Notes under the pieces: model-generated | Database searches by the model: none | Seen by the model: only the letters and a program-made list of their open reading frames with translations | What the model was told of the DNA's origin: nothing | In this document: piece by piece, positions 854-47,413 of the stretch | Layout: each line of letters begins with the position of its first letter | How positions within the stretch are numbered: the stretch's first letter is position 1 | Made by a program: the position numbers and the translations under genes | Assembly: GCA_025059045.1 (NCBI GenBank) | Contig: JANXEA010000013.1 | Coordinates: forward strand, 33,896-97,895 | Length of the DNA stretch: 64,000 nucleotides | Direction of reading: 5' to 3' | Origin: Candidatus Bathyarchaeota archaeon | Lineage (GTDB): Archaea; Thermoproteota; Bathyarchaeia; Bathyarchaeales; DTEX01

Positions 854-1942
854 TTGCATTATGGTCAGGTGCAGCCCATAATGCCAACTGCAAAAAGAAT
901 AGGTTTAGGCTTCAACGAGACTTTGGGCGCAACAATCCTGCCCTCACGTTGCATTGGATGCGGTTCATGCGTCGCAACTTGCCCAGCCAGCTGTATCGAA
1001 TATATTGATGGAAAACCATCCCTCAGGGGAGAATGCAGGTCATGCGGAATATGCTCAAAGATTTGTCCAAGATACGAGCTGCCCCTGTCAACTCTGGAGG
1101 AACTTGCTTTAGGAAGAAAAAGGGGTCCAAATGAACCGTTTGGTGTCTATAGAAGCTTGTGGGTGGCAAGAAGCATGGATGACAGAATATTAAGGGTATG
1201 CCAAGATGGCGGCGTCGTAACCTCTTTACTCAACTTCGCCCTGAAGAAGGGAATTATTGACGGGGCAGCTTTGTCTGGAGTAGACGAGAATGAGCCCTTA
1301 AGAGCTGTCCCCCGCCTTGCTCTCACAGAAAACAATTTGGTCCAATGTGCTGGGACACGATACAATTACTCGCCAAATATTCTCGCATTCGGAGAGGGAT
1401 TAGAGAGGGGGAAAGAGCGGCTTGCCTTCGTTGGAACCCCCTGCCAAATACAAGCTATTAGAAGAATACAGCATTTGCCGCTGAGAAGATTTTCAGACCA
1501 TCTGAGCCTAACCATCGGTCTCTTTTGTAGTGCATGCTTTACCTATGATGGTTTAGTAAAAGACTTCATATCTGGAAAGATGGGAATCGATCCATCAAGC
1601 ATAAAAAAGCTCAACATAAAAGGTCAGCTAATCATAACTATGAAGTCTGGAGACGTGAAGACGGTGCCCCTTAAAGAGATAAGGAAATATACTGCTAGAT
1701 GCGTTGAAGGATGCTCAGACTTCTCCGCAGAATTGGCGGACGTGTCAGTCGGCGGCTTAGGCCTGGAAGACTGGACAATGACGATACTTCGAACAGAATT
1801 TGGCGAAAGAGTCTTCATGGAAGCCAAGGCTAATGGCATAATTGAGGCGAAACCGTTAGATGAAGTGGACGGTAAGATCCTAGATCTACTTATAAGAATG
1901 TCGGTTAGGAAGCGTGAAGCTTCAGTTCTCACCCGTGCTTAG
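854..1942 (+). CDS. Coenzyme F420 hydrogenase/dehydrogenase beta-subunit family protein (FrhB/FpoF-like) with N-terminal 2x[4Fe-4S] domain
   Basis: Two ferredoxin motifs (CIGCGSCVATCP and CRSCGICSKICP) are followed by an FrhB/FdhB-like body. The start is TTG at 854, with an alternative ATG at 881. It is adjacent to mch and fwdCA. Confidence 0.7.
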   Translation: MHYGQVQPIMPTAKRIGLGFNETLGATILPSRCIGCGSCVATCPASCIEYIDGKPSLRGECRSCGICSKICPRYELPLSTLEELALGRKRGPNEPFGVYRSLWVARSMDDRILRVCQDGGVVTSLLNFALKKGIIDGAALSGVDENEPLRAVPRLALTENNLVQCAGTRYNYSPNILAFGEGLERGKERLAFVGTPCQIQAIRRIQHLPLRRFSDHLSLTIGLFCSACFTYDGLVKDFISGKMGIDPSSIKKLNIKGQLIITMKSGDVKTVPLKEIRKYTARCVEGCSDFSAELADVSVGGLGLEDWTMTILRTEFGERVFMEAKANGIIEAKPLDEVDGKILDLLIRMSVRKREASVLTRA

Positions 1943-2912
1943 GGGATGGAACTGGATTAAAGTCTAGAGACTTCATCAACATCTCCTTACTTGTCTCTCC
2001 AGCGCTGTAGATCCTCCCCGTTTTAATATTGTGGATCAAGGTTTTAGCTGGAGCGAAGGCTTCTGGATCAATCTTCTGGAAGTTGAAATCTGCCTCCTTA
2101 AAGATCTCCCTAAACAATCTGCCATAATACTTTGATGATGAGAAGACGGTTCTTGAAACGAGACTCTGGAGCACACCTTCATCCTCCCAATTTAAGGTGC
2201 AGCCGAATATGCCGCCATATAATACGGCATCGTTACCTCGACCCATCGCTTCAATAATGTCTGGATGGGGCAACATTATGGGAGCAGATCCCCATGCAGC
2301 AGCAATCCTCATTGGATCTACGCCCAGTTCAAGAAGCCTGTAAACACCTGTCTCGACTATCCGGCCCGAAATCTGCGTCAACCCAGCAATAGATCCCGTC
2401 GGCACAAGGATCAAGAACAAATTTTTTGGATCGACATCACATAAGCCGGCTATCATCTCGATAACCTCAGTCGGCGGTCTCCTTTCAGCTTCTAGCACAA
2501 GGACAGCAACATCCGATTTCTCACTATAGCCTATCCTCTCAAAAATACGCTTTGGCTTAAGAGCCAAGGCCCTGGCAGGACCAGATCCTATCGCCTCATA
2601 ATCGCTAACTCTAATATGCCAGCCGGCAAGCTGCGCCCCTAGAGTAGATATGGCCGGATGATCCGTGTATACCGAGATGTAGGGAAGGCCAAAATCTTCT
2701 TGGATGCTCATCGAGATACTTGCTTCACCGAGCCCGCCTAGGCATATCTCCGTTATCTTTTCGCCTGTCAATAGCCCTCCCTGCGCCTCTAACCCTGCAT
2801 CAATAAGTGTAGCGCCCAAACCGGCCTCTTCAATTTTCACGCCATACCTATTTGGCTGTTCTATGATTTCCTCCAATATTTTGAATGCGTTACGATTCAT
2901 TTCAAGGCTCAT
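1929..2912 (-). CDS. mch: Methenyltetrahydromethanopterin cyclohydrolase
   Basis: 327 aa. The N-terminus (NRNAFKILEEII..P..YGVKIEE...GATLIDAGL) and the overall length are typical of Mch. It lies directly downstream of fwdA-fwdC. Confidence 0.88.
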   Translation of the reverse strand: MSLEMNRNAFKILEEIIEQPNRYGVKIEEAGLGATLIDAGLEAQGGLLTGEKITEICLGGLGEASISMSIQEDFGLPYISVYTDHPAISTLGAQLAGWHIRVSDYEAIGSGPARALALKPKRIFERIGYSEKSDVAVLVLEAERRPPTEVIEMIAGLCDVDPKNLFLILVPTGSIAGLTQISGRIVETGVYRLLELGVDPMRIAAAWGSAPIMLPHPDIIEAMGRGNDAVLYGGIFGCTLNWEDEGVLQSLVSRTVFSSSKYYGRLFREIFKEADFNFQKIDPEAFAPAKTLIHNIKTGRIYSAGETSKEMLMKSLDFNPVPSPKHG

Positions 2913-2940
2913 AATATACCATCCCAGTTTCAGACACTAA

Positions 2941-3663
2941 CTAAAGATATTTCTCATAGGATCTTAGTTGCGGATTCTTCTCCTTGGCGACGAAAAGCTT
3001 CCCCTCACCGCCCTCCGCAATATCTCCGATGAAACGATAAAATGGTCCCTGGATCACTTCACCGTCTATTTTAACATTTTCTCTAATCGAATCAATGATA
3101 AAAGTTGGGAGAACAGTTGGCATATAGCCGCACACTATGATCCTGCCGTTAAGCATATTGGCCCCTGCCCTCCCACCACAATCACCACCTACAAGTATTG
3201 ATCCGTCCTTCATGTTGGCGCCTGCAAACTCGCCCACATTCCCCATTATCCTTATGAATCCCCCCATCATGTTGCGTCCAACCTCATTACCAGCATTTCC
3301 ATGCACGACGATTGTTCCGCCCCTCATACCATTCACTTCTCCCCGAAGTGTCGAGCCCACATGATCGTCTGCAGAACCGAAAATCTCGATCCTTCCTCCC
3401 ATCATCATGCACCCGACCCAAGAGTCCGCATCACCCATAACAATTATTTCGCCTCCAACCATCATCTCGCCCAAACGCATCCCTATATTTCCCTCGATGA
3501 ATATCTGACCGTTTGTCATCTTGGCACCGACCATCCTAACTTTGTCCAGGTCACCGTATATCTGGATTATGCAAGGCTCTGGGTATTCTTTATCACATCT
3601 AATCTGGAACAGGTCTTCTAGGTGGCGAAGCTTATTTCCCTCCCAAACCGTGAATGAGGACAC
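2941..3663 (-). CDS. fwdC: Formylmethanofuran dehydrogenase subunit C
   Basis: 240 aa of repeated G-x-x-G-x-x-(M/V/I)-x-G-G beta-helix motifs (GEMMVGGEIIVMGDA, GCMMMGGRIEIFGSA, GNEVGRNMMGGFIRIMGNV) typical of the FwdC/GXGXG family. Confidence 0.85.
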   Translation of the reverse strand: MSSFTVWEGNKLRHLEDLFQIRCDKEYPEPCIIQIYGDLDKVRMVGAKMTNGQIFIEGNIGMRLGEMMVGGEIIVMGDADSWVGCMMMGGRIEIFGSADDHVGSTLRGEVNGMRGGTIVVHGNAGNEVGRNMMGGFIRIMGNVGEFAGANMKDGSILVGGDCGGRAGANMLNGRIIVCGYMPTVLPTFIIDSIRENVKIDGEVIQGPFYRFIGDIAEGGEGKLFVAKEKNPQLRSYEKYL

Positions 3664-3761: not shown

Positions 3762-5471
3762 TTATACCTCCGCTTTTACAGAGATAGGTGATGAGTTCCT
3801 AATGAAACCTTCATGAATAAAATAATTGTCCATCTCAACCGTCCAATAATCTCTAAACCTCTCTTTTAAGTCCTTAATCGCTGTCTCATAAAGTTCCATT
3901 CGTGAATGGCAATTGAACCTCACGTCCACCCAATAGGTGCGCCCCTCAGCAGATCTAGTTACTTTGCCATCCCATACGATAATCTTTCCACCCTTGATCA
4001 CATATTTAGCGTTTTGAAATGCCTTCCGAACATTCTTATGCCTTCTTGAAAGGTCGGTCTCTCGCGGGTTTAAATCATAGATGGCTATGTCCGCATCTGC
4101 TCCCACACCCAGGTGCCCCTTTGTGGTAAGCCCAAGAGATCTGGCTGGACCGGCACGAGTGATAATAGCAACATCGTAAAGGTCATACTCTCTATCGATG
4201 CTTGGTAGGAGACTTCTCTTCCTAGCCTTCGCATTAGCCTTATTAAGGGTCGCCTCTCGCGACCTGCGACTAACAAGCCAAGAGATTATTCTAGGATATG
4301 TTGTAAAGGGAGCCCCGTTCGGGTGGTCAGTGGTCAGGAATATTTTCCATGGGTCCCTAATCAGTAATGCGAGCTCAAGCCCTATAGACCACATTATGGC
4401 GTGCACATAATTCTTCCTTCTATACTTGAATGGAACTATGCCTGCTCCTGTCTCGGTCTCTACATCATGATTTACCCATTTATTCCCACTCAATCCGTAA
4501 AGCGTGTATTGCCAAGGGCCGTCAGCAGTCATCGTTGTTGTATCCACAAACGCTATCTGACCCATGTCTATAGTCACATGAGTGTGACTGTTAACGTAAC
4601 TGGAGATCTCCTCGGCCCCTGACCTCATCGTTCTCCAATCCTCTCCCTTGAATGAACTGAACTGGCAATGCGTAATGTGTAGTATCGGCTTATTTCCAGA
4701 TGCTAGATCCTCGACGCATCCCATCGTCTCTAAGGTCGTCTCATAATTCCCCGGCTGACCCAGGCGGTTAGTGTGCAGATGTAGGGAGTGTGGCATATTC
4801 AAGATCTTGTTGACCTTGCAAAGGCCGCGGACTATCTGCCTAGGCGTAATACCAAAATATGTGATCTGATCATCGAGGCTTTCAACATTCCCCCCAAAAC
4901 CCCACGCTTCAACTCCGCCTGGATTAACAACCTTAATCGCATAGCCCTTAGTCGCACTGATCATCCAAGCAACATGCATCGCACACTCTTCAATCATGTC
5001 CCTGCTAAGATACTCTAGCACAAACCACCAGTCGCCGAGCAGGGGAAAAGTGACCTTATCAAGGATCGGCGTGTCCGCAAGTTCCTCATGGGCGTGCCGG
5101 GCCTCAAGCGGCGGCATCGATGGATTGCATATCATAGTGTAACCCATTCGAGCATAACGGTAACCAGTTATGAAGGTTGTCGGAACCGAATGCCCAACCC
5201 CCGATCTTAACCCTGAAGTCTTAGGCTCAAAATCCTTGAAATGATCTTCAGGCCTTATGAGACGCCCCATATTGACCTCGGATCCTGCGATATGAGTGTG
5301 AATATCAACACCACCTGGCATAACAGTCCTGCCTGAAGCATCAATAACCTTAACTACCTCGCCCTCTATCCTATCGACAACTTTGCCATCATCAATAAGA
5401 ATGTCCATAATGTCTCCCTTCACGCCGTTCATGGGGTCGAAGACGAAACCGTTCTTGATCAGTAGTTTCAA
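3762..5471 (-). CDS. fwdA: Formylmethanofuran dehydrogenase subunit A (amidohydrolase fold)
   Basis: 569 aa. The N-terminus reads LIKNGFVFDPMNGVKGDIMDILIDDGKVV...PGGVDIHTHIAG, which includes the metal-binding HxH. The TTG start is preceded by AGGTGG. Confidence 0.9.
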   Translation of the reverse strand: MKLLIKNGFVFDPMNGVKGDIMDILIDDGKVVDRIEGEVVKVIDASGRTVMPGGVDIHTHIAGSEVNMGRLIRPEDHFKDFEPKTSGLRSGVGHSVPTTFITGYRYARMGYTMICNPSMPPLEARHAHEELADTPILDKVTFPLLGDWWFVLEYLSRDMIEECAMHVAWMISATKGYAIKVVNPGGVEAWGFGGNVESLDDQITYFGITPRQIVRGLCKVNKILNMPHSLHLHTNRLGQPGNYETTLETMGCVEDLASGNKPILHITHCQFSSFKGEDWRTMRSGAEEISSYVNSHTHVTIDMGQIAFVDTTTMTADGPWQYTLYGLSGNKWVNHDVETETGAGIVPFKYRRKNYVHAIMWSIGLELALLIRDPWKIFLTTDHPNGAPFTTYPRIISWLVSRRSREATLNKANAKARKRSLLPSIDREYDLYDVAIITRAGPARSLGLTTKGHLGVGADADIAIYDLNPRETDLSRRHKNVRKAFQNAKYVIKGGKIIVWDGKVTRSAEGRTYWVDVRFNCHSRMELYETAIKDLKERFRDYWTVEMDNYFIHEGFIRNSSPISVKAEV

Positions 5472-37613: not shown

Positions 37614-38252
37614 CTACTTCTCTAACCCGAACATGTCTCGAAACCTTTCGCTATAGGTCAAGGGGTCAGTTTCCCTTACCGTCCCACTATCCACATCAAC
37701 AACATATATGGAATGAAGCCTTGCGTTCCTTATTTCCTCAAGAGTAACAGGAGGATTGCTATAATACAGATCGCAAAGATCCTTCGCCTGTCTTATCTCC
37801 TCTTCACGGCGATGGCGAGGCGGCCTCAAAAATATTGGATGAATCGGCATTACATAATGAGGTGGAATTGCAAGGGCAAACTTGTCAGCATAACCGCTAT
37901 ATCTCGTGATCTTACTGGTTATCCTAGCATTTATATACGTTGTCGGATCAAGGGCGTGCTCCGGGGGGACAAACCCTGTTTCAACCTCGACTATCAGGCG
38001 TCCCATGCCCTTTTGCCCAAATATATCACATGAAATATTGTTCAAAGTCTTCTCAACCTCTACAGAATAGCCGGATAGAATGAGGTGCTTGGCGCAGACT
38101 AGCTCCATAACTGAATGGTTGATCTTTACCAAGTTCCTCCTATATAAAGCGATTAAATGATCCCTCAAGATGACCATTTCTCTGAGAATATTTTCATCAT
38201 CCTTACAGAGTCTACTTACCAGCTTATCCAAGTCTTTCTCAAATTTCCCCAA
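37614..38252 (-). CDS. Uncharacterized protein with Hjc-like PD-(D/E)xK nuclease-fold signature
   Basis: 212 aa. MELVCAKHLILSGYSVEVE...CDIFGQKGMGRLIVEVETG resembles the E...D...ExK core of archaeal resolvase-type nucleases, but reads E-V-E. I recognise no family for the N- and C-terminal extensions. Confidence 0.55.
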   Translation of the reverse strand: MGKFEKDLDKLVSRLCKDDENILREMVILRDHLIALYRRNLVKINHSVMELVCAKHLILSGYSVEVEKTLNNISCDIFGQKGMGRLIVEVETGFVPPEHALDPTTYINARITSKITRYSGYADKFALAIPPHYVMPIHPIFLRPPRHRREEEIRQAKDLCDLYYSNPPVTLEEIRNARLHSIYVVDVDSGTVRETDPLTYSERFRDMFGLEK

Positions 38253-38482
38253 TCTTTTTTATTCCACCCGGATAGAGAAATTAGACATAGCCTCCACATT
38301 TAAGCTTTTATTTTAATCAGCAAAGAATCTTCAGTCAAAAGGGCTAGATCTCGCCTCAAGCAAGAAATAGAAGGCAGGAAACATAATGGTCGCCATAAAT
38401 TAACTTCATAAGAGAATTTAGCCAAATATTAGGCTCTACTCAAAAATGCTGTACCTCTTAGTCAACTCTTATGTGCAAAAGA

Positions 38483-38490
38483 CTTATATG
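38483..38490 (+). promoter_or_regulatory. TATA-like element upstream of the structured RNA candidate
   Basis: CTTATATG lies about 22-29 nt upstream of the first base of the terminal helix (38512). Confidence 0.3.
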
Positions 38491-38511
38491 TTACGGGGAG
38501 AATTTTTATTT

Positions 38512-38741
38512 CCCCGATCAGAGGGCAAGCTTCAAGTATTGCATTGAGGCAAGGACGCATTAACCGAAATGGCTGAAGGTTAATGCGTGAGAAAGACTTG
38601 CCTCAATGGGCCACTCAATACTTTAGGCGCAATGCGGTTAGGCCTCGAGCATACCAGTTTAAATGGCTGGAAAACTGGTATGCGACAAAGACGGTGCCTA
38701 ACCGGGCTAAGCTTGCGCCGGAGGCTTAGTTCTGATCGGGG
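38512..38741 (+). ncRNA. Unclassified, internally duplicated structured RNA candidate (about 230 nt)
   Basis: Hand-folded nested helices. Trunk: 38512-22/38731-41 (11 bp) and 38523-32/38709-19. Arm A: 38534-41/38616-23, 38542-53/38597-608 (12 bp) and 38555-65/38578-88 (11 bp). Arm B: 38635-43/38696-704 (9 bp) and 38649-59/38673-83 (11 bp). The two arms share the loop core AAAUGGCUG and the 3' strand GA(G/C)AAAGAC. A T4 tract lies at 38751-54. Strand was chosen from the purine-rich unpaired strands. Confidence 0.6.
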
Positions 38742-38752
38742 GTTCCAAAATT

Positions 38753-40513
38753 TTAAGACTCGACTGTTCTCAATCGACTTCTATACATCTCAATTATCTC
38801 TGATACTGTTGTCGCGTCTTCAGCTGATTTATCAATTCGATAGTTTCCAGTAAACCTTGGAAATCTGATGGCTAGGCCGCTTCCCCTTCTTATAACATCT
38901 TGCGCACATGTGTGGATTGGACTTAATGTGATTTCTGCACCTATTATTTCAAGAACAACCTTAGGCTCGAACCAAATGTCAGCTTCAATTTTAGATTCAA
39001 CCCTTGGATGACGATGTGTGATCTTATGTTTCTCCATCATCTCCGGAATTTTGAGGAGGTCCTCATCTGTGAACCCTGATCCACACTTGCAGACCGTTTC
39101 GAAAACATCATCTTGAGGGTTGTACGCAGCAAGCAAAAGTGCACCGAATGTTCCCGCTCTCTTTCCCCTTCCATGAAAGGCTCCGACCACCACTAACTCT
39201 ACAGTATCTATCATCTCACTCTTATAGTCTCGTTTATACTTGATCCATAACCATCCCCTCGCCCCGGCCTGATATATAGAGTCTTCGCCGATAGACTTGC
39301 ATACAAGTCCCTCGCAGCCATTTTCTATAGCCTCCTCAAAGAAGCGTTCAAGCTCCTCAGGATTATCCGTCAGAATATAATTCGCTATGTTAATTCTCTC
39401 ATTTGGTTTAATTATCTGTTCAAGGACCCTGTGCCTAGTCTGGTAGGTCTCAGCAGTAAAGTCTTTTCCGTCTGCATATAACACGTCGAAAACGAAAAGT
39501 GAGACCGGATATTCCTTGACGGCTTCTTCTATACCATACTTCCGCCTTCTATGCATCAGTTCTTGGAACGGCTTCATCTCGCCAGTGTCAAGATCCACCG
39601 CAACACACTCAGCCTCAATAATGGCTTGATGAGGAATTATCCATCCCCGAACTAATTCAACAGCATCTGGATACTGATCCGTTATATTCTCAAGTCTCCT
39701 AGAAAAAAGTATGACTTTGTCCCCGTCCTTGTGGGCCTGTATCCTTTCTCCATCATACTTGTACTCAGCTATGCATCTTCCACCAAGTTTTTCCAAGATC
39801 TCCCTTGGCGAGCTTAAACGTTCGGCAAGCATAGGCCTGACAGGGCATCCTATCGAAACCTTAAAATCCTTAAGCCCCTCTACACCCATCTCAGCAGCGG
39901 CTTTTGCCACCTTCCCAAGGTCAGAGGAGACATTATATGCTCTCTCGAATAGGGGTCTTGTCTCTTTCCCGCCACCGTAGGCGATGGCTAATGCGTCGAG
40001 AACAGTCATATCTGCGATGCCGAGGCGTAGCTTACTTGTCACCGTCCTTATGAGATACTTCGCCTCTTTAGGTGTAGCATCCATGAGTAGGCCAGTCAAA
40101 AGATTTATCTTCTGATCAGTGGCGCCTGCCCCTGTGGTCTTCGCCATCTTGTCAAGGGTGTGATATACCCTTTCAACTGTAAGGGGATGAGTGAAAAAAG
40201 TAGACTGGAGCCTTTTTGCCAGCATCTTCTGAGCGGTCTCCCCTAGATCTCCAGTTACCTTCAAGTCTTCTTCAATCTCACTTTCCTTTCTACCACTAGC
40301 TCTTGCAACAGCTCTTACAGCAAGTTTCTCAGCCACTCCTATCTCAATCCCAGTAAAATCTGGGTAAAGTTTTCCCTGCGTTAAATAAACAACTTTATCG
40401 ATCAATGTCTTCGGAGTTTTTCTAAAAAACTCTACAAGGTAATCCGTCATCTCAAGCCTCTTAGTTGTATCTTCAATTTTTTCATATGCCTCAGCAACCA
40501 GAGAATACATCAA
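38753..40513 (-). CDS. lig: ATP-dependent DNA ligase
   Basis: 586 aa. Adenylation motif I (AEYKYDGERIQ) and motifs EGLV.K, LLLAAY and GSGFTDE. Archaeal Lig1-type length. Confidence 0.95.
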   Translation of the reverse strand: MMYSLVAEAYEKIEDTTKRLEMTDYLVEFFRKTPKTLIDKVVYLTQGKLYPDFTGIEIGVAEKLAVRAVARASGRKESEIEEDLKVTGDLGETAQKMLAKRLQSTFFTHPLTVERVYHTLDKMAKTTGAGATDQKINLLTGLLMDATPKEAKYLIRTVTSKLRLGIADMTVLDALAIAYGGGKETRPLFERAYNVSSDLGKVAKAAAEMGVEGLKDFKVSIGCPVRPMLAERLSSPREILEKLGGRCIAEYKYDGERIQAHKDGDKVILFSRRLENITDQYPDAVELVRGWIIPHQAIIEAECVAVDLDTGEMKPFQELMHRRRKYGIEEAVKEYPVSLFVFDVLYADGKDFTAETYQTRHRVLEQIIKPNERINIANYILTDNPEELERFFEEAIENGCEGLVCKSIGEDSIYQAGARGWLWIKYKRDYKSEMIDTVELVVVGAFHGRGKRAGTFGALLLAAYNPQDDVFETVCKCGSGFTDEDLLKIPEMMEKHKITHRHPRVESKIEADIWFEPKVVLEIIGAEITLSPIHTCAQDVIRRGSGLAIRFPRFTGNYRIDKSAEDATTVSEIIEMYRSRLRTVES

Positions 40514-46674: not shown

Positions 46675-46893
46675 TCATTTAATTTTTCTAGCTTCTCTTT
46701 CAGTCTCTCGCAGCATGAGTATATCGTCCAGCCTTACAGGACCTTTAACATTCCTTGTTAATATTCGTCCCTTCTCCGGACCATCGAGTATTCGAACACG
46801 AACAACCGTCACTTCACCCGCAACCCCTGTTCTTCCAATAATCTGAATGACCTGCGCAGGTGTCGGTACTTCCTCTTCTTCTTTTCGGCTCAT
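46675..46893 (-). CDS. rps28e: 30S ribosomal protein eS28 (S28e)
   Basis: [60 protein letters not shown]. Confidence 0.9.
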
Positions 46894-47273
46894 CAGCCTG
46901 ATCCTTCCCTAATCTTCGCAACCCTTGCGATTATTTCTTTAATCAAGTCTCCAGCTTCGCCAGGATCTATTATTGAGGCAGAAGCAGAATTCACCTCAAT
47001 ACCCACGGAGGCGCCTAATTTAGCCTTGCTTGGAACAAAAACGTAAGGTATCTTCCTTTCATCGCATAGGATCGGCAGATGAGCAACCACTTCTGGTGGA
47101 TCAACATCCTCGGCGATCACAACAAGCTTCGCCAAACCACGTTCAATAGCCTTAGTGGTTTCGTTAGTTCCCTTACGTACATTTCCCGTCTTAGAGGCTA
47201 TTTGCAAAGCTTCATAAGCCGCGTTCGCAACTTCATTTGGAACTTGAAACTTAACATAGAACGGCTTCGACAT
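46893..47273 (-). CDS. rpl7ae: 50S ribosomal protein eL8 / L7Ae (K-turn binding protein)
   Basis: [79 protein letters not shown]. The ORF extends to 47315. Confidence 0.9.
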
Positions 47274-47413
47274 CCAGACCACCGAAACCTCATCAACATA
47301 CGTTTCAGTTTGCAACCAGGCTCCTAACTATTATGGGATCTCCCTATATATGTTGCGGTTTAATGATTTTTAACGGTCGCTCTAAAGACTATGGGGACGG
47401 TGTTGTCATGGAT

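Follow-up and report, generated by a model that had tools for sequence, protein, structure and literature searches.

A pseudoknotted RNA of Bathyarchaeia encoded next to a PD-(D/E)XK-like gene, and its relatives

To our knowledge, few classes of structured archaeal RNA are known besides ribosomal RNA (rRNA), transfer RNA (tRNA), signal recognition particle (SRP) RNA, RNase P RNA and the guide small RNAs (sRNAs). Outside these classes, the Y RNAs are small RNAs endowed with their own transcription signals, whose gene lies beside that of a presumed protein partner, Ro60 (Rsr, in the bacterial rsr-yrn arrangement), and whose two ends form a basal stem in which an internal loop or bulge is conserved; their distal part is modular and varies between lineages. 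The omega-RNA and trans-activating CRISPR RNA (tracrRNA) of TnpB, IscB and Cas9 are likewise structured, pseudoknotted RNAs encoded directly beside a nuclease-fold gene. The RNA described here shares these features, the gene beside it being nuclease-like. It occupies positions 38512-38741 of the + strand of a stretch of 64,000 nucleotides (nt) from Candidatus Bathyarchaeota archaeon (contig JANXEA010000013.1), called hereafter the window, and it very probably represents a genuine new family of noncoding RNA (ncRNA), absent from Rfam 15. Reading its sequence and those of its homologues, we lean towards a stable ncRNA of ~240 nt, predicted to be transcribed independently, whose most likely partner would be the protein of 212 amino acids (aa) encoded by the neighbouring gene, which we call p212.

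The predicted minimum free energy of 38512-38741 (+) is -110.9 kcal/mol, against -69.3 +/- 4.2 kcal/mol for 200 dinucleotide shuffles, none of which matched it (z = -9.9). No Rfam match was obtained at the gathering score in the whole 64-kb window, nor at E <= 10 in 38200-38850 for anything overlapping the element. An earlier note on this DNA had proposed a structured RNA of no known family, and both the empty Rfam scans and the distance from the shuffled controls bear it out. The minus strand of the same segment is likewise well folded (z = -10.9) and, therefore, the folding energy by itself gives no strand assignment. The element is single-copy within the window; no tRNA gene was found there by ARAGORN, and the element is the sole RNA gene recognised across positions 1-64000. 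The open reading frames (ORFs) on either side of it are both on the minus strand. The features of the locus, with the paired regions named P1 to P4, are as follows.

37614-38252, - strand: p212, PD-(D/E)XK-like gene of 212 aa, divergent from the RNA; proposed protein partner
38472-38489, + strand: promoter, made of TGTGCAAAAG (38472-81), which resembles a B recognition element (BRE), and the TATA box TTATAT (38484-89); ends 22 nt before P1
38512-38523, + strand: 5' strand of P1, the terminal helix formed by both RNA ends, pairing with 38730-38741 (predicted fold and compensatory changes)
38523-38533, + strand: GGGC, the 5' half of the basal internal loop (family consensus GRGCA/RAGYA), then AAGCUUC, the 5' strand of the P2 base, 38527-33 (family-invariant sequence)
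38534-38623, + strand: arm A (predicted fold, covariation, 76 bits to the one-arm model)
38534-41/38616-23, 38542-53/38597-608 and 38555-65/38578-88, + strand: basal stem, P3a and P4a of arm A (fold and homologues)
38554 and 38589-96, + strand: hinge of arm A, G38554 opposite GAGAAAGA
38566-77 and 38609-15, + strand: apical loop GAAAUGGCUGAA and 3' bulge GGCCACU of arm A
38570-38574 and 38609-38613, + strand: pseudoknot A, loop UGGCU with bulge GGCCA (complementarity kept through two-sided changes)
38626-38719, + strand: arm B (predicted fold and compensatory changes in homologues)
38626-32/38713-19, 38635-43/38696-704 and 38649-60/38672-83, + strand: basal stem, P3b and P4b of arm B
38684-91 and 38661-71, + strand: GACAAAGA, facing the hinge of arm B, and its apical loop
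38664-68 and 38705-09, + strand: pseudoknot B, loop UGGCU with bulge GGCUA
38721-38741, + strand: 3' side, with the P2-base strand GAGGCUU (38721-27), AGU of the basal loop (38728-30; AGA/AAA across the family) and the P1 strand (38730-41)
38751-38754, + strand: T4 tract, likely an archaeal oligo-T terminator, abutting the convergent ligase stop codon at 38753-55
38753-40513, - strand: ATP-dependent DNA ligase, flanking ORF convergent with the RNA; stop codon 38753-55

The terminal helix, the three stems of arm A and the two upper stems of arm B had been drawn by hand in the earlier note; they are present in the predicted fold and show compensatory changes in homologues. The second trunk helix drawn there (38523-32/38709-19) was mis-paired: the predicted fold and the homologues agree in replacing it by two other helices, a 7-base-pair (bp) helix AAGCUUC/GAGGCUU (38527-33/38721-27), which is the sequence-invariant P2 base of the family, and the basal stem of arm B (38626-32/38713-19).

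Homologues were collected from 80 loci obtained by scanning genomes with the ligase protein of the window, nearly all of them labelled Bathyarchaeia. The element was found by nhmmer in 18 of these loci and by a covariance model built later in 19, all 19 copies lying immediately 3' of the ligase and on the opposite strand. A one-arm covariance model (R1) matches the window, 19 ligase-homologue loci, 24 metagenome loci and 13 p212-homologue loci, with scores up to 157 bits, on one strand only, and RNA homologues are present in more than 45 Bathyarchaeia loci. No further copy is detected by this model in the window or in any of the 80 ligase loci, where the RNA occurs only beside the ligase. Two of the loci, L017 and L071, encode ligases 72-74% identical to that of the window and are filed as metagenome-assembled genomes (MAGs) of a Krumholzibacteriaceae bacterium and of Promethearchaeota; both contigs are probably binning contaminants of Bathyarchaeia origin.

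The commonest form of the RNA has a single arm and measures ~133 nt, the two-arm forms being those of the window and of its nearest relatives (L001, L002, L005, L006, L007, L010, L019, L081 and L084). Since most homologues have one arm, the internal duplication is real and evolutionarily recent: the window RNA arose by tandem duplication of one module within a constant outer frame. The suggestion that the arms were diverged copies of one module is thus displayed directly by the one-copy relatives. Two short ORFs of 48 and 88 aa overlapping the element cannot be conserved, most homologues having only 133 nt.

The consensus structure was established with 27 distinct one-arm RNAs, including 24 true matches from a pattern scan of metagenomes. 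It begins with P1, a 10-bp helix made by the two ends of the RNA, followed by an internal loop (RAGY on the 5' side, AGA on the 3' side) and by P2, 15 bp long, whose first 7 bp (AGGCUUU/AAGGCUU) are sequence-invariant and include G-U wobbles; GGCUUAGAC, in the 3' P2-base region, is invariant in 27/27 RNAs. Above P2 come a 7-nt 3' bulge (GGCCGGn), P3 of 13 bp, a hinge with an A opposite GAnAAAGA, P4 of 11 bp and a 12-nt loop, RAAACRGCUGAA. Double compensatory changes occur at 39 of the 54 pairs, and P1 is compensated at 8 of its 10 pairs. In the alignment, 96.8% of the paired cells can form the pair, against 24-46% when the partners are slid, and none of 500 shuffles reached the observed values. 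RNAalifold run on 12 sequences gave compensatory changes at 32/49 pairs; in nine aligned two-arm RNAs, compensation was seen at 51 of 73 pairs, in support of both arms, and 27 diverse modules showed double changes at 27 of 29 pairs. The search in relatives by nhmmer, covariance model and covariation therefore found the helices conserved and covarying, with the loops and the hinge conserved, as anticipated from the pattern of changing stems and constant unpaired purines in the window. The apical loop core AAAUGGCUG and the 3' strands GA(G/C)AAAGAC are also as first described and conserved across the family.

From these alignments, the core of the family is a basal platform, consisting of an end helix of 10-12 bp, an internal loop (5' GRGCA/RAGYA, 3' ARA) and the invariant helix. 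The platform bears one or two modules of ~75 nt, two in the window, and each module has a pair of 11-13 bp helices linked through a one-sided, A-rich hinge (A opposite GAnAAAGA), as well as a pseudoknot of 4-5 bp.

The pseudoknot associates, in each arm, five nucleotides of the apical loop (YRRCU) with the 3' bulge at the foot of that arm. In the 27 diverse modules, four of its five pairs show double changes and 94% of the cells are paired. The complementarity between loop and bulge survives changes on both sides across independent variants:

loop CGGCU, bulge GGCCG: common form
loop CAGCU, bulge GGCUG: common form
loop UGGCU, bulges GGCCA and GGCUA: the two arms of the window
loop CGAC, bulge GUCG: L100
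loop ACCAGU, bulge ACUGGU: arm A of L007
loop GCCCAG, bulge CUGGGU: arm A of L006

P3, with 12-13 bp, and P4, with 11 bp, match in length, and the A-rich hinge is nearly invariant. The simplest geometry would be the one in which P4 is folded back along P3.

The RNA is encoded on the + strand of the window. This strand was assigned because conserved wobbles, U19-G122 (invariant in 27/27 RNAs) and G16-U125 (frequent), would become A-C mismatches on the opposite one; the covariance model scores ~150 bits on one strand and at most 34 bits on the reverse. The transcription signals agree with this assignment. The promoter motif GTGCAAAAG-nn-TTATAT, which has one occurrence in the window, stops 22-27 nt short of P1 in almost every homologue, and a run of at least four T starts within ~12 nt past P1 in most of them. 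Strand, TATA box and T-tract had all been proposed from the window; over 40 homologues show them again at fixed distances. One-arm loci place the RNA promoter and the p212 promoter back to back; two-arm loci have an unconserved spacer of 150-250 nt between them, and in the window the spacer between p212 and the RNA (38253-38470) presents no conservation outside the two promoters. A weak Rfam match to a Tetrahymena H/ACA small nucleolar RNA (snoRNA) covers the region of the p212 start and promoter (38229-38348, minus strand; 25.9 bits for a gathering score of 100); it was judged to be noise, and relatives show no conservation of the spacer.

The protein p212 has no match in Pfam, NCBIfam or PADLOC, nor in a PDB sequence search, and no description of this protein family or of the RNA was found in the literature. 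Its AlphaFold2 model has a mean confidence (pLDDT) of 91, and its best Foldseek matches in the PDB are all PD-(D/E)XK nucleases (SfsA, XisH, HindIII, Bax1, Can2 and Hjc), these matches being weak (best E = 1e-3, template-modelling (TM) score ~0.3). The fold is recognised by an alpha-beta-beta-beta-alpha-beta core in which strands 2 and 3 bear conserved acidic residues, and by a lysine. Seven residues of p212 are invariant down to 26% identity (H46, E67, D76, E89, E91, K114 and Y118), which suggests, at the level of sequence, that p212 is an active enzyme. The family is small, with 245 clusters at 50% identity.

The RNA is genetically tied to p212 and not to the ligase, because the pair persists where the ligase is absent from the vicinity (L084-86, L132/133 and L135). 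Of 19 genome loci, 17 have a p212 homologue adjoining the RNA, the remaining two being L001, whose contig ends at the RNA, and L008, which has another gene at that place. It also adjoins the RNA in 21 of the 22 metagenome loci with sufficient flank, the exception being L100. Conversely, contigs encoding seven p212 homologues were examined and six of them have an RNA matching the one-arm model directly upstream and divergent. The seventh is L134, a Bathyarchaeia variant (1645-1808, minus strand) that retains promoter, P1 and basal loop, as well as the beginning of P2; its interior is an unrelated hairpin (z = -5.0), which replaces the pseudoknotted module. In L008 (6150-6857, + strand), a Bathyarchaeia genome, the gene adjoining the RNA in place of p212 is a different ORF of 235 aa, partly N-masked.

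More distant p212 homologues are labelled as other Thermoproteota lineages. Those of L138 (Thermoproteota) and L141 (Thermoprotei) are 100% and 47% identical to P0151, which is itself 36% identical to the p212 of the window. In both loci, the p212 homologue is followed immediately downstream by a strongly folded RNA (z = -9.2 and -11.9, respectively), which is convergent with it, possesses a TATA box of its own and bears the basal motif P1-GRGCA...GGCUUAAA-P1'. The one-arm model matches both RNAs with E ~1e-4 despite their differing interiors, and L138 presents a candidate for the loop-to-bulge pseudoknot (GGGAGGC/GCCUCCC). A scan of 1.14 Mb for the basal motif gave 63 instances versus ~3 in shuffles, all but ~3 of them being these RNAs; the instances in L028, L099 and L121, within coding-like sequence, are chance matches. 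Hence the linkage of RNA and p212 holds across rearrangements and across lineages. The basal stem with its internal loop, as a core common to RNAs of other Thermoproteota, was absent from the earlier note, as were the loop-to-bulge pseudoknot, the one-arm form as the common one and the tie to the nuclease-fold gene and not to the ligase.

Other RNA features were observed around these distant homologues. In Nitrosocaldus sp. (L140, 3224-3445, minus strand), the p212 homologue is followed, in convergent orientation, by a structured region of 222 nt (z = -5.2) with no Rfam match. In a Nitrososphaerales MAG (L143, 3146-3379, minus strand), a multi-branched region of 234 nt (z = -8.6), giving no Rfam match at E <= 10, abuts the stop codon of the p212 homologue on the opposite strand; this homologue (2501-3145) is preceded by a canonical archaeal SRP RNA at 2029-2339 (+ strand, 141 bits) and a tRNA is found further downstream (3931-4015, + strand). 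Finally, a candidate box C/D sRNA (3550-3604, + strand) lies in the extended gap that follows the p212 homologue of L141, a Thermoprotei MAG, with sub-threshold Rfam matches to sR1 and sR5 (24.7 bits, E = 0.01).

How could such an RNA work? We propose that the hinge would let P4 fold back along P3, so that the loop could reach the bulge and each module would become a compact two-helix bundle. The conserved platform would offer a docking site to the neighbouring PD-(D/E)XK-like p212, and the two would act as a ribonucleoprotein, in which the RNA may scaffold, regulate or target the enzyme. Binding of the RNA to p212, and any biochemical role, we infer from the genes; that the two function together seems to us about evenly poised, with at most a slight lean in favour. 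A stronger version is possible, if doubtful: the RNA would be an obligate subunit of a ribonucleoprotein enzyme across Thermoproteota (Bathyarchaeia, Thermoprotei and relatives), the PD-(D/E)XK nuclease being RNA-dependent or RNA-gated through the GRGCA/GGCUUARA platform.

Several observations weigh against a joint function of RNA and p212. L008 and L100 have the RNA without an adjoining p212, the distant p212 homologue of L137 has no RNA nearby, and the structured regions downstream of the Nitrososphaeria homologues L140 and L143 are devoid of the basal motif. The predicted isoelectric point (pI) of p212 is 6.7, a near-neutral value atypical for RNA-binding proteins. Moreover, the adjacency could merely reflect a shared bidirectional promoter or inherited synteny. 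The RNA would then be a stand-alone structural or regulatory ncRNA unrelated to p212, kept beside it by a compact bidirectional promoter and by synteny, for which L008, L100 and L137 speak, as does the orientation of the two genes, divergent in Bathyarchaeia and convergent in L138 and L141. However, the pair moves jointly among at least four different gene neighbourhoods, and its adjacency endures at only ~36% identity between p212 proteins though the arrangement has been rebuilt, facts which are hard to explain by synteny or promoter sharing alone; we hold a stand-alone RNA to be rather unlikely. Even less is to be said for the absence of any RNA gene on the + strand, the element being instead the 3' untranslated region (UTR) or terminator of the ligase mRNA, a DNA palindrome, a protein-binding site or an element resembling a miniature inverted-repeat transposable element (MITE). 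The good folding of the minus strand, the start of the element 11 nt past the ligase stop codon and its terminal inverted repeats would suit such a view, which is nevertheless extremely improbable: the conserved G-U and U-G wobbles and the model scores (~150 versus 29 bits) favour the + strand, the promoter and the T-run are both on that strand, and the element is present without an adjacent ligase, single-copy in the window and found once per locus.

The geometry of the module raises its own alternatives. In arm B of L006 and L007, the A-rich hinge is missing and the complementarity of loop and bulge is kept although a straight 21-bp helix cannot fold back, so that the fold-back geometry is not the whole story and pairing between two molecules becomes an alternative. 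Intermolecular assembly occurs in other ornate orphan RNAs, and in all arms the loop and the bulge are ~22-24 bp apart, about two A-form turns, as would suit head-to-tail dimers or higher oligomers. Against such self-assembly stand the near invariance of the hinge and the matched lengths of P3 and P4 demanded by the fold-back, and we find it improbable as the main explanation. The high conservation of loop, hinge and bulge nucleotides, together with the tandem duplication of a self-contained module, also brings to mind a trans-acting ligand sensor or a ribozyme, with a pocket made by the unpaired purines and the pseudoknot and a tandem arrangement as in the glycine riboswitch. This is very improbable in our view: on the RNA strand no gene follows, only the T-tract and then a convergent gene, no ribozyme or riboswitch family matches, and L134, L138 and L141 have swapped the module for unrelated interiors while keeping the platform. 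It is thus the pairing of RNA and p212 within a ribonucleoprotein that we retain as our working proposal.

The comparative support for this RNA is unusually complete, as it associates compensated helices, a covarying pseudoknot, its own promoter and terminator, and the link with p212. Its modular evolution can be read from a platform that stays constant and carries one arm, two arms or an exchanged interior, and the module itself, as a compact natural fold, merits structural study. If the ribonucleoprotein proposal is right, it would reveal a new cellular machine of Bathyarchaeia, archaea that are abundant and have so far escaped cultivation, and it would open a route to the function of an orphan RNA and of an orphan protein family alike. 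If the RNA were in addition an obligate subunit, p212 would be the first RNA-dependent enzyme of the PD-(D/E)XK fold class in a housekeeping setting.

It remains to place this RNA among known ones. The proposal that it does not fit the RNase P, SRP, tRNA, C/D or H/ACA architectures was sound: none was matched over the element at E <= 10 or recognised by its defining features. For H/ACA sRNAs, which have a two-sided pseudouridylation pocket, the internal loops are all one-sided (3' side) and no conserved ACA follows P1; for box C/D sRNAs, RUGAUGA is missing, the sole CUGA lies within the pseudoknot loop and the length is 133-230 nt instead of ~50-70 nt. The suggestion of a kink-turn (K-turn)-like site fails at the three places where it could be sought. 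A K-turn combines a three-nt bulge, a canonical stem and a non-canonical stem opening with tandem sheared G-A/A-G pairs (G1b, A2b, A1n, G2n). The hinge is a 1 x 8-nt loop where the would-be G2n is Watson-Crick paired to an invariant C atop P3 and the neighbouring P3 pairs covary; at the apical loop, the 3' 'GA' varies between RNAs (UGAA, UAAA, GAAA); and at the basal loop, judging from sequence, the necessary register would leave a 2-bp C-stem and break the invariant 7-bp P2 base. L7Ae is indeed encoded in the window, as had been pointed out (ORF 46893-47327, minus strand, with the L7Ae signature), but this protein is universal in archaea and its presence therefore says nothing specific about the RNA.

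Elements of other kinds were rejected as well. A riboswitch or cis-regulatory leader does not agree with the T-tract and then the convergent gene present on the RNA strand in the window and relatives. A MITE or insertion-sequence remnant is countered by the single copy in the 64-kb window and by a position that is always orthologous, beside p212 or the ligase. As for the RNA of a type III toxin-antitoxin system, the element is on the strand opposite to p212, has mostly a single module, and lies in a single-copy housekeeping neighbourhood, and p212 matches no PADLOC model. Finally, a likeness of GGCUUAGA...AGCAGGC to the helix 43 loop of 23S rRNA (GTPase-associated centre) was rejected as mimicry: with what we take to be the E. 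coli helix 43 sequence, the register misfits the pairs and P1 would interrupt the loop.

Comparison with well-described systems helps to delimit the family. Like archaeal SRP RNA, the new RNA is stable, long and hairpin-like, and in L143 an SRP RNA stands directly upstream of the p212 homologue. It has, however, no GNAR tetraloop, helix 6/8 pair or Alu domain, and measures mostly 133 nt; RF01857 gives no match at E <= 10 or at the gathering score, whereas the same tool recognises the SRP RNA of L143. The GAAGCAG of the basal loop presumably resembles, loosely and in permuted form, the symmetric loop of SRP helix 8, and membership was rejected. For RNase P RNA, none of the models (types A, M and the minimal T) matches at E <= 10. 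The 3'-proximal GGCUUA looks like the conserved region CR-V and the 5' GARGYARG loosely like CR-I, in what we take to be the sequence of E. coli M1 RNA; only the hexamer GGCUUA is really in common, and the RNA has neither ACAGAA, nor the bulged-U P4, nor P2/P3, its interior being unrelated.

The fold of the module has counterparts too. In the K-turn-dependent fold-back pseudoknots of the S-adenosylmethionine (SAM)-I riboswitch P2 and of the lysine riboswitch, and in the P4-P6 domain of group I introns, a long hinged helix likewise brings its apical loop to dock near its base, and A-rich unpaired segments are common to all of them. The new RNA differs from these by its 1 x 8-nt hinge, which fails the K-turn rules, and by being a stand-alone gene instead of a 5' leader or intron domain. 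Compared with omega-RNA and tracrRNA, it has no variable guide segment, its T-run coming within ~12 nt of P1; its locus is single-copy amid housekeeping genes, with no transposon ends or repeats, and p212 is PD-(D/E)XK-like and not RuvC or HNH as in TnpB, IscB and Cas9. The nearest functional analogy would be that of Y RNA with Ro60. It is an analogy between systems devoid of homology, since p212 resembles PD-(D/E)XK nucleases and not the Ro60 ring, the present system is archaeal and its partnership is a proposed one, but it offers a described precedent for a small RNA whose constant basal stem and variable distal part accompany a protein encoded next door.

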